Assembly (NCBI GenBank): GCA_040767195.1
Contig: JAXGPA010000001.1
Location: 864,001-928,000, forward strand
DNA from: Syntrophales bacterium
GTDB lineage: Bacteria > Desulfobacterota > Syntrophia > Syntrophales > UBA6807
Length of the DNA: 64,000 nucleotides
Reading direction: 5' to 3'
Position numbers and translations under genes: made by a program. The notes beneath the pieces are model-generated. The model saw nothing but the letters and a program-made list of their open reading frames with translations, was not told the DNA's origin and ran no database searches. Of the stretch, positions 51,190 to 53,916 are shown in pieces; the first letter of the stretch is position 1; the number at the start of each line of letters is the position of its first letter.

Positions 51190-52416
51190 TCAAAAGGATG
51201 AAGCCGAAGCCGTCCTGTCTGCGGCGCCGTTTGTCACCCGTCTCAACTGCCGCAGAGCCTGGCGGATCCGCTGCTCATTTTCCACGAGGGCGATCCGCAG
51301 ATAGCCTTCTCCCTCGGGACCGAAACCGATACCCGGCGACAGGACGACTTCGGCCTCTTCAATGAGACGCATGGAAAAATCCAGGGAGCCCATTTCCCGG
51401 AAGGGCTCGGGAATCCTCGCCCAGACGAACATGCTCGCCTTCGGTTTCTCCACCGGCCATCCCAGGGCGTTAAGCCCGTCACAGAGGACATCCCGTCTTT
51501 TTTCATAAACTTTCACCTGCTCTTCAATGAAGTCTTCGCAGTCCCTGAGAGCGACGATGGCGGCGATCTGGATGGCCTGGAAAAGCCCGTAATCATAATA
51601 TCCCTTTATCTTGCCAAGGGCTTCCACGATCTTTCCGTTGCCGACGCAGTACCCGACCCGCCATCCTGCCATGTTGTAGGATTTTGACAGGGTCCCGAAC
51701 TCCACGGCCACGTCCCGCGCCCCCGGGACCTGCAGAAGGCTCGGGGCGTCATAACCGTCAAAGGTCACCCGGCCGTAGGCAAAGTCGTGGACGATGACAA
51801 AGCGGTGCTTTTTCGCCAGCCGGACCGCTTCTTCAAAGAAGGGGAGGGAAACGGTCTTCGTCGTTGGATTGTGGGGATAATTGAGAAAGAGCGCCTTCGG
51901 AGCGGGACGGGCTTCACGGCAGAGGGTGTCCACCGTCCGCAGGAGGGTCTCGTCATCGTCGACGGGAACGGGAAGCACCGAGGCGCCGGCGATCACGGCG
52001 GAATAAATGTGAATGGGAAAGGCGGGCACGGGAACGATCACCGCATCCCCGGGACCGAGAAGTGCCAGAGACAGGTGGGAAACCCCTTCCTTGGACCCGA
52101 TGGTGCAGATGACCTCCTTCTCCGGAACGAGGGACACGCCATACTGCCTGTCGTAATACCGGGAAATCTCCCGGCGCAGGTTGTGGATTCCCGGAGCAAC
52201 GGAGTATCGGTGGTTCCGGGCGTCACGGACGACGGCGCAGAGTTTCTCCACCACCGGCCCGGGGGTCGGGTCGTTGGGGTTGCCCATGGCCAGGTCGATC
52301 ACGTCGATGCCCTGCCTTCGCTTTTCCTGCTTGATGCTGTTGAGCCGCCCGAAAAGATAGGGCGGCAGAAGATCCATGCGGTCCGCCAGCTTGATAAAAT
52401 CCTCTTTGCCTTCCAT
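51190..52416 (-). CDS. alaC: PLP-dependent class I aminotransferase, AlaC-like glutamate-pyruvate (alanine) transaminase
   Basis: LPPY.F, MGNP, VEKLC, TIGSKEG, PIHIY.AVIAGA, SKSYNMAGWR.G, IK.Y.DYG.F, PKASM.VWA.IP, SPGIGFG, AL.EN..RIRQA; these segments match E. coli AlaC as recalled. Confidence 0.82.
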   Translation of the reverse strand: MEGKEDFIKLADRMDLLPPYLFGRLNSIKQEKRRQGIDVIDLAMGNPNDPTPGPVVEKLCAVVRDARNHRYSVAPGIHNLRREISRYYDRQYGVSLVPEKEVICTIGSKEGVSHLSLALLGPGDAVIVPVPAFPIHIYSAVIAGASVLPVPVDDDETLLRTVDTLCREARPAPKALFLNYPHNPTTKTVSLPFFEEAVRLAKKHRFVIVHDFAYGRVTFDGYDAPSLLQVPGARDVAVEFGTLSKSYNMAGWRVGYCVGNGKIVEALGKIKGYYDYGLFQAIQIAAIVALRDCEDFIEEQVKVYEKRRDVLCDGLNALGWPVEKPKASMFVWARIPEPFREMGSLDFSMRLIEEAEVVLSPGIGFGPEGEGYLRIALVENEQRIRQALRQLRRVTNGAADRTASASSF

Positions 52417-52450
52417 CGTTTTACATCCTCCATCAGAAAATAATCAGGCC

Positions 52451-52486
52451 AATAAAAAAGCCATGAACGGCAAGGTCCACGGCCTT
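52451..52486 (-). terminator. Attenuator terminator 2 in the alaC leader
   Basis: RNA AAGGCCGUGGAC-cuugcc-GUUCAUGGCUUU followed by UUUAUU. Confidence 0.75.
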
Positions 52487-52491
52487 CGAAT

Positions 52492-52537
52492 AAAAAAAAG
52501 GCCATGGACGGTTCGATGATCGAATTGCCCATGGCCT
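52492..52537 (-). terminator. Attenuator terminator 1 in the alaC leader
   Basis: RNA AGGCCAUGGGC-aa-UUCGA-uca-UCGAA-cc-GUCCAUGGCC followed by U8. Confidence 0.85.
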
Positions 52538-52559
52538 GTGATGCTTTTATGTAAGGGAC

Positions 52560-52649
52560 TTACGGAAAAGCGCCACCCGCCATGGGCCCTGGAGCCCTGG
52601 CGGCCATAGCTGCGGCCATCCGGCTGGTCTTTTCCTCAAACACTCTCAA
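52560..52649 (-). CDS. Putative Ala-rich attenuator leader peptide MRVFEEKTSRMAAAMAARAPGPMAGGAFP
   Basis: TTG start after GAGGA RBS; 29 codons with 8 Ala (GCC, GCA, GCT and GCG all used); stop lies 22 nt before terminator 1. Confidence 0.75.
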   Translation of the reverse strand: MRVFEEKTSRMAAAMAARAPGPMAGGAFP

Positions 52650-52678
52650 TTTACATCCTCTGAATATTTTACCGCTTC

Positions 52679-52706
52679 AGAATACACGAGGCACCTTGTT
52701 TGTCAA
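52679..52706 (-). promoter_or_regulatory. Sigma70-type promoter of the alaC leader
   Basis: TTGACA(52706)-N16-TATTCT on the minus strand. Confidence 0.7.
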
Positions 52707-52948
52707 TCTTTTTTTCTTCCTCTGCTTCCCAGCTTCACGGTTGCCCCGGTCCCGTCTCCGCGCGGGACCTGTTAAGCGGTTCGCGAGACCCGTCCTCGAC
52801 CGGCTGAAAAGGCCGGCAAGCACGATGGCTGGAACGCATTGCGCTCTCTCCATGCCGATCGGGGCGTTGCGGTCATAAGGGCCTGTCCGTAACCGGACTT
52901 CACCGGGTTGAGTCGGGAAGGAAGCCGTACGGGTGGACGCCTTTTGCC

Positions 52949-53439: not shown

Positions 53440-53916
53440 ATGCAGGTCAAGTACCCGGACAGGCAGCTTTCCCTCTTCAGAACCCGGATGATGGATGCCC
53501 TGAATCCGGACCACGAACTCGTCCGGGCCGCCCGGCGGATCGACTGGAAAGGTCTTCATGAATTTCTGCTGCCCTGCTACAGTTTGTCGGGCCGGATGGG
53601 CAAACCCATCCGGCTCATGGCGGGACTCTATTTTCTCAAACGCCGATATGACTGCTCCGACGCCGCCGCCCTGGAGGAGCTGCATGAGAATATATACTGG
53701 CAGCATTTCTGCGGATTCTCCTCTTTTCAGAAAGGCCCCCTCCTGGACGCCAAGGCCCTGGTCCGCTTTCGAAAAAGGCTTGGAACGGAACGGATGGCCC
53801 GTCTTGACGGGCTTTTCGAAAACACCTGGAAGGACCTCCCGGTGCCGAAAGGCACGGGGTTTCCACGGTTCCGGGCCCGCCCTTCCTTTCGCCGGAACAG
53901 GCGGCCTTCATCGTAA
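53440..53916 (+). mobile_element. IS5-family transposase N-terminal (DUF772-like) domain only; no DDE domain
   Basis: Q.SLF, L.P.H.LV.....IDW, GR...P.RLMAGL..LK....SD, EN.YWQ.FCG, D...L.RFRKRLG; ORF ends at 158 aa. Confidence 0.75.

Follow-up and report, generated by a model that had tools for sequence, protein, structure and literature searches.

A candidate alanine-codon attenuator with two coupled terminators upstream of an AlaC-like aminotransferase gene in Syntrophales

The classical attenuators of enterobacteria are trpL, hisL, leuL, thrL, ilvL and pheL, and the his leader among them comprises six segments. In Bacillus subtilis (B. subtilis), alaT may be preceded by an alanine T-box. 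Attenuation has reportedly been surveyed comparatively by Vitreschak in 2004 and by Lopatovskaya in 2010. In the searched sections of PMC6522883, the regulation of B. subtilis alaT is given as unknown. According to the consulted part of a preprint (bioRxiv 10.1101/2023.06.02.543512), the uORF of mycobacterial whiB7 is an experimentally tested, alanine-enriched transcription attenuator with a Rho-independent terminator. As described there, it acts through a transcription factor, it responds to many starvations and to antibiotics, its alanine residues (25-40%) are dispersed through the uORF, and its output raises the alanine aminotransferase AspC, with which it forms a loop. Alanine attenuation as such thus has a precedent, although a broad and indirect one. 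An earlier reading of the present DNA, made from the sequence only, stated that no characterised alanine version was known; this was too strong in view of whiB7, but no direct version, that is, a cis-acting alanine leader on an aminotransferase gene, was found in our literature search, in which subscription journals were poorly covered. The term 'alanine' is absent from the searched text of PMC2965389, PMC8632094, PMC4833913 and PMC11109978, and term searches within PMC6522883 and PMC1183508 gave no such leader in the text covered. An overlap of the leader described below with the aspC motif or the uORF candidates of PMC11109978 is possible.

Here, we analysed a window of 64,000 nucleotides from the genome of a Syntrophales bacterium, in which an AlaC-like gene is preceded by a leader that is very probably a ribosome-mediated transcription attenuator gauging charged tRNA-Ala. 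Like the classical attenuators, it has a short ORF in which cognate codons are clustered, a protector, an antiterminator and an intrinsic terminator that exclude one another, and a position directly 5' of a probably biosynthetic gene; the six-segment his leader is the closest classical layout. Unlike them, it would sense alanine, it has two serial U-tailed terminators joined by an additional pairing, and it occurs in Desulfobacterota. With whiB7, in so far as the consulted part of the preprint describes it, it shares an alanine-enriched uORF controlling a terminator and a tie to an aminotransferase that, in the present case, is probably alanine-forming. However, its alanine codons form a compact run, it lies in cis directly 5' of the enzyme gene and it has two terminators. 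The novel aspects are the amino acid sensed by a direct leader, the coupling of two terminators and a scaffold that is common to several leaders, while the mechanism itself is textbook.

Layout of the leader and the modelled switch

All features of the locus are on the minus strand of the window.

52679..52706, minus strand: sigma-70-type promoter-like site TTGACA-N16-TATTCT, 10 of 12 consensus matches, presumed to set the transcription start
52656..52660, minus strand: leader RBS GAGGA, 6 nt 5' of the TTG, assigned by sequence
52560..52649, minus strand: leader ORF with TTG start, 29 codons, 8 of them for alanine, all four alanine codons used
52593..52616, minus strand: control codons 12-19, 6 alanine codons per 8, assigned by sequence, codon conservation and modelled stalls
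52577..52603, minus strand: protector hairpin A:B (A 52603-52593, B 52588-52577)
52587-52579, minus strand: antiterminator arm inside B, with a 9-nt match to the 5' arm of terminator 1
52538..52576, minus strand: spacer hairpin that contains the stop codon of the leader, formed in either modelled state, placing B beside C
52492..52537, minus strand: terminator 1, C:D, 11 pairs and U8 (C 52537-52527, D 52509-52499)
52454..52486, minus strand: terminator 2, E:F, followed by U6 (E 52486-52475, F 52468-52460)
52426..52431, minus strand: RBS GGAGGA of the aminotransferase gene, assigned by sequence
51190..52416, minus strand: class I aminotransferase of 408 aa, an AlaC-like paralogue by profile, identity and tree, presumed to be the regulated gene

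The sequence-only reading had already placed the promoter, the RBS, the leader, the protector, the antiterminator arm and the terminator with its U8, and each of them was found at its position. All the stems that it listed are present, but it overlooked another one, at 52486-52454, which has a U6 tail. The 5' arm of this terminator 2, E, is complementary to D, the 3' arm of terminator 1, which gives the alternative pairing D:E. The leader therefore comprises six segments, which pair either as A:B, C:D and E:F or as B:C and D:E. Instead of the 1:2 / 2:3 / 3:4 logic that had been proposed, the layout has six segments and two coupled terminators.

The promoter-like site is weak when considered alone, since TTGACA-N16-TATTCT was found once against 0.7 times expected from shuffles. 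TTGAC lies 5' of the alanine run in 25 of 25 leaders, a count to be read with the fact that the selecting script demanded TTGAC when picking the run. Translation of the leader could begin at the TTG or, in the same frame, at an ATG at 52619. An identical 11-nt stretch is found at the RBS of the leader (52660-52650) and at that of the enzyme gene (52430-52420). A GC-rich spacer of about 245 nt (52707-52948) separates the promoter from an MTH1187-family gene, 3' of which no terminator was seen in the window. This spacer is single-copy and missing from the sister genome, and it was for these reasons rejected as a part of the attenuator. An IS5-family transposase fragment of 158 aa is located at 53440-53916 on the plus strand. 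Assembled RNA contigs (four runs of one study) cover the body of the gene, those of a single run also cover a portion of the leader, and a variant of the spacer with 19-22 differences is seen among the contigs. The contigs neither cover nor bridge 52432-52505 and are uninformative on transcript ends and levels, and no weight was given to them. An Rfam scan of the element, a check that the sequence-only reading had suggested, gave no family at the gathering score; the best score was 25.4 bits, to an unrelated family.

Based on this layout, transcription would start near 52672. With ample alanine, a ribosome translating the leader would reach its stop codon and cover B; C:D and E:F would then form, and transcription would terminate at either U-run. 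When charged tRNA-Ala is scarce, the ribosome would pause at about codons 14-19 and cover A, leaving B free. B would pair with C upon the emergence of C, the freed D would pair with E, and neither terminator would form. The polymerase would proceed into the gene of the AlaC-like aminotransferase, which most likely converts pyruvate to alanine. That a stall on alanine codons frees B and allows read-through had been proposed from the sequence, and this step is supported by conservation, by synonymous variation, by covariation and by folding with a masked ribosome.

In the folding model, both terminators of the window sequence reach a probability of 0.95 without a ribosome and of 0.99 with a ribosome at the stop codon. 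With a ribosome on the last alanine codons, the terminators fall to 0.00, and B:C and D:E rise to 1.00. For the whole window leader, the fold is switched when the modelled ribosome stalls at codon 14, 16, 17 or 19, and not when it stalls at codon 12 or 13. The model thus has a stalled ribosome freeing the antiterminator arm and a ribosome at the stop codon covering it, as expected of an attenuator. The masked folding put forward in the sequence-only reading therefore switches the window sequence, but full-length equilibrium folding of 33 leaders lost C:D upon a stall in only 12-14, and C:D was lost without a ribosome in 5. The equilibrium values of E:F are meaningless for L003, L004, L242 and L096, whose columns are misaligned. 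The Phe leader of the same genome switches in this model and its aromatic and Val leaders do not, which makes equilibrium folding an incomplete test. In transcripts cut after C, B:C formed in 30-32 of the 33 leaders when stalled, in none with the ribosome at the stop codon, and in 29 when ribosome-free. Because of this last count, the cut-transcript test mostly reflects geometry, the role of the protector is unsure, and the outcome without translation is not predicted by the model.

Conservation of the alanine run and of both RNA states

Homologues were taken from 41 relatives, from a scan in which each species was represented by a single genome and which gave 80 loci, from 401 genomes of the phylum and from 301 genomes of the class. 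In a protein tree of 119 of the 121 homologues, the query falls within a clade of 48 rows (SH-aLRT 96). Alanine-rich uORFs with covarying stems 5' of orthologues, which the sequence-only reading had named as a check on its proposal, were found: a leader with an alanine run and three hairpins occurs at 34 distinct orthologous loci (25, a further 8, and L275 from a model search), related loci among them being non-independent, and both RNA states covary in the larger of two groups, of 21 sequences. All of the 16 orthologues found among the 301 genomes of the class have the leader. In a held-out search of the class, 10 of 10 new loci carry it, two of them repeating L013 and L014, and L247 has the weakest run. 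A fixed screen called the leader at 24 of 47 loci in the clade and at none of 71 homologues outside it; this screen missed the true leaders L003 and L048, gave a wrong peptide for L004, counted the identical L024 and L095 separately and omitted 3 short loci. Covariance model R1 found no comparable match in 95 leaderless loci (best 20.7 bits). In about 20 loci of the clade, those of the Desulfobacula/Desulfopila groups and L015-L017, no leader was seen in the stretch covered by the analysis. By record name, the carriers include Syntrophales, Syntrophobacteraceae, Desulforhabdus, Desulfococcus and Desulfosarcina.

The element could be a product of chance, in which a GC-rich spacer, two ordinary terminators and an accidental alanine-rich frame came together. 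Small ORFs with an alanine run do arise by chance in GC-rich DNA, 3 per 772 upstream regions, and 2 of these have a terminator-like site, one being the present leader; moreover, the loose regular expressions also caught tRNA-like stretches. However, an accident would hardly recur at 34 loci and in 16 of 16 members of the class sample, be absent from all 71 homologues outside the clade, and covary, and we regard chance as having a negligible share. The loose matches L102, L104 and L106 (tRNA-like by eye), L065 and L085 were rejected. A pattern scan of metagenomes was itself treated as chance, its pattern being too loose: 0 of 120 stretches had an aminotransferase match, and among the rows listed with at least 4 alanine codons per 8, 0 of 43 had a U-run.

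In three loci (L003, L014 and L004), the gene 3' of the aminotransferase appears to encode an ATP-cone protein of the nrdD type. In L003 and L014 it overlaps the aminotransferase stop codon by 4 nt, and there it may be co-transcribed under the alanine leader.

The 263-nt region folds with z = -3.59, and none of 200 shuffles was as good. The leaders are divided into two groups, in which B is offset by one codon, and these were aligned separately (21 and 12 sequences). In the larger group, 16 pairs of the terminated state are changed on both sides, and in the antiterminated state 9 pairs, with 21 cells, are so changed; in neither state does any of 500 shuffles reach the covariation score, and slid controls score far below it. 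By helix, the paired fraction and the number of pairs with two-sided change are 90% and 6 for C:D, 94% and 7 for E:F, and 81% and 6 for D:E, and B:C is 89% paired. A:B is weaker, its outer part being 70% and its inner part 27% paired. The smaller group includes the window leader; its terminated state shows 90% pairing and 6 pairs with two-sided change, and 26 of 500 shuffles reach the score of this state. There, 87% of the cells of A:B and 98% of those of C:D are paired, as are 81% in the four closing pairs of the spacer hairpin. The antiterminated state of this group, 90% paired and nearly invariant, has no two-sided change, and 488 of 500 shuffles reach its score. All these counts are inflated by kinship among the sequences. 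Among 33 leaders, a stretch of 8 nt with at least 5 U comes after D in 22, after F in 27, and after either of them in 32.

Because the two final codons of the run are alanine by construction, codon statistics were restricted to codons -4 to -2, which are alanine in 29, 27 and 28 of 33 leaders, respectively. In these codons, third positions have an entropy of 1.5-1.9 bits, compared with 0.4-0.9 bits at positions 1 and 2. Third positions therefore vary while the first two are largely kept, which indicates selection on the amino acid and not on an RNA repeat. These data bear on the possibility that the element is a riboswitch or a protein-bound RNA, in which untranslated GCN repeats serve for pairing. 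It is true that part of the alanine run lies in helix A:B, and that leader starts and RBSs are variable and weak in some relatives. Nevertheless, the pattern of codon positions argues against this possibility, as do the in-frame start that is present in all 25 leaders examined, the lack of an Rfam match, and the use of the same scaffold with other amino-acid runs that fit the downstream pathway. We consider an untranslated element very improbable.

Outside the run, the N-terminal leader sequences are unrelated to one another (25 leaders). In L003, L249 and L067 the leader ends 12-18 nt past the alanine run and the downstream RNA segments are retained, from which it follows that the C-terminal part of the peptide is dispensable. 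Alanine is the sole residue conserved in the control window; sensing of methionine was rejected because Met is not conserved there. A short uORF, a codon-conserved run of a single amino acid and mutually exclusive antiterminator and terminator pairings, which are features of ribosome-mediated attenuators, are present.

The amino acid that is counted could still be incidental, if the leader, like the whiB7 uORF, senses general translation speed or ribosome stress. Alanine is a common residue (8.3% of codons across 1000 long ORFs from this genome), and the sensitivity of attenuators has been modelled, in the part of PMC1183508 that was searched, as scaling with the inverse of codon frequency; the whiB7 leader, as far as the consulted part of the preprint goes (10.1101/2023.06.02.543512), responds to many starvations. 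Yet alanine makes up 27% of the leader residues and is alone in being conserved, the fold is switched only by a narrow codon run, and the downstream gene encodes a metabolic enzyme. General sensing thus appears improbable to us, and gauging of charged tRNA-Ala is the preferred reading.

The AlaC-like aminotransferase

Among 66 NCBIfam families, the aminotransferase matches AlaC (PRK08175) best, with 528.1 bits, which is below the equivalog cut-off of 647 bits. The naming of the gene as AlaC-like in the sequence-only reading holds for the best match; owing to the cut-off, however, the alanine-forming activity itself is a deduction. The enzyme has 53% sequence identity to Escherichia coli AlaC (YfdZ) over 380 aa and AlaC-type motifs, and its best match in the PDB is 2x5d from Pseudomonas aeruginosa. 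Unlike AlaC itself, it belongs to a separate clade, which bears the leader and forms a stand-alone paralogue. From these sequence comparisons, the enzyme likely forms alanine from pyruvate.

An LL-diaminopimelate aminotransferase, the alternative that had been named with the original proposal, is contradicted by several results. The profiles PRK09276, TIGR03540, PRK09148 and PRK08636 are all below cut-off, there is no dap context, and the tree places the enzyme on a separate branch from DapL (100/100). The DapL of the genome is encoded by a separate gene, which is above its own cut-off and adjoins dapF.

The leader could also be a real alanine-sensing attenuator on an enzyme that is not mainly alanine-forming, one that catalyses another transamination or for which alanine is needed or yielded indirectly. 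The score below the AlaC cut-off fits such an enzyme, and so does its clade, which is distinct from that of the canonical AlaC-like gene of the phylum. The latter, of which 2 of 3 tested pass the AlaC cut-off, has no leader and precedes what we take to be a homoserine-dehydrogenase-like gene in 18 of the 20 loci shown (L101-L121). Furthermore, there is another alanine route in the genome:

G000:C7:22869-23882, minus strand: aspartate 4-decarboxylase (L326), above cut-off

The presence of this gene means that the AlaC-like enzyme is not the sole possible source of alanine. Against such an enzyme, the protein is nearer to AlaC than to the DapL of the genome (40% identity), and DapL, aspartate aminotransferase-like and HisC genes are each present separately. 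The genome has 9 genes of the class I/II aminotransferase family, and none of the other eight has alanine transaminase as its best match. No alanine dehydrogenase was found in the genome, which is 98.8% complete. In addition, the leaders that share the scaffold match their own pathways. A non-alanine enzyme is, on balance, rather unlikely, and an alanine-forming one is preferred. The original reading had taken the leader as independent support for alanine as the product; this is partly circular, as the leader supports the enzyme and the enzyme supports the leader. The neighbour of the canonical gene raises a question of its own, whether that gene serves aspartate-family metabolism.

A terminator scaffold common to other leaders

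Covariance models of the alanine leader gave weaker matches in 143 of 150 genomes of the same order and in 41 of 150 of the phylum. Of these matches, 28 were inspected, more than 300 further weak ones lying outside that set, and 24 of the 28 are leaders with the same two-terminator module. They comprise 1 Ala leader, 8 Phe leaders before the gene of a periplasmic binding protein (PF13458, as tested for L260), 9 Trp/Tyr/Phe leaders before a DAHP synthase (family tested for L261), 4 Trp leaders before genes that we recognise as trpB-, trpE- and aroF-like, 1 Leu leader and 1 further Phe leader. The other four (L262, L295, L296 and L298) are plain terminators and were rejected as leaders. Eleven rows align across C, D, E and F. 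The following leaders were located in detail.

G000:C7:139136-139264, minus strand: Phe-rich leader L260 on the two-terminator scaffold, also in 7 other inspected genomes
G000:C6:48521-48628, minus strand: Trp/Tyr/Phe-rich leader L261 on the same scaffold, before a DAHP synthase
G000:C8:17784-18045, minus strand: Val-rich leader L257 with the two terminators of the same scaffold, before a presumably ilvB-like gene
G000:C8:15170-15341, minus strand: Ile-rich leader L256 with one terminator, before a presumably ilvB-like gene

The last two are 2.7 kb apart. The context of L260 suggests that its binding protein belongs to a transporter of phenylalanine or of aromatic amino acids. Other families of the phylum also have leaders on the scaffold that are rich in Leu, Phe or Trp (L299, L303, L294, L297, L300 and L302); L303 precedes a protein of no recognised identity, and no downstream ORF was found within the locus of L299.

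The alanine leader resembles the tandem-terminator aro/trp/ilv leaders of Syntrophales in its C-D-E-F module, with the same spacing and the same self-complementary CCRYGG cores. It differs from them in its control codons, in its AlaC-like target and in the sequences of A and B. Among the indirect lines of support for the attenuation mechanism, the strongest is this agreement between codon run and pathway in leaders built on one scaffold. The C-D-E-F scaffold would descend from a common ancestor, although self-complementary cores could also converge.

A wider interpretation, to which we give about even chances, is that two interlocked terminators governed by a single stalled ribosome form a portable chassis in Desulfobacterota, which was duplicated and retuned by its control codons (Ala, Phe, Trp/Tyr/Phe, Trp, Leu, Val). 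The alanine version would then be a direct and alanine-specific one on an alanine-forming enzyme, marking the clade of the AlaC paralogue as the regulated source of alanine. Theory expects sensitivity to be low for so common an amino acid, and a sharper response may be what the second terminator provides.

If the proposed mechanism is true, alanine would join the amino acids that are gauged by classical cis-acting leaders, having so far been gauged only indirectly, through whiB7. An attenuator would also imply that transcription and translation are coupled in this lineage. As the leaders of one genome have a common terminator module and differ in their control codons, a change of specificity of attenuators would become testable, and the same set would allow a test of whether the coupling of two terminators brings a gain in range or sensitivity. 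Finally, the leader would provide a functional clue for the AlaC-like clade in syntrophic and sulfate-reducing bacteria.
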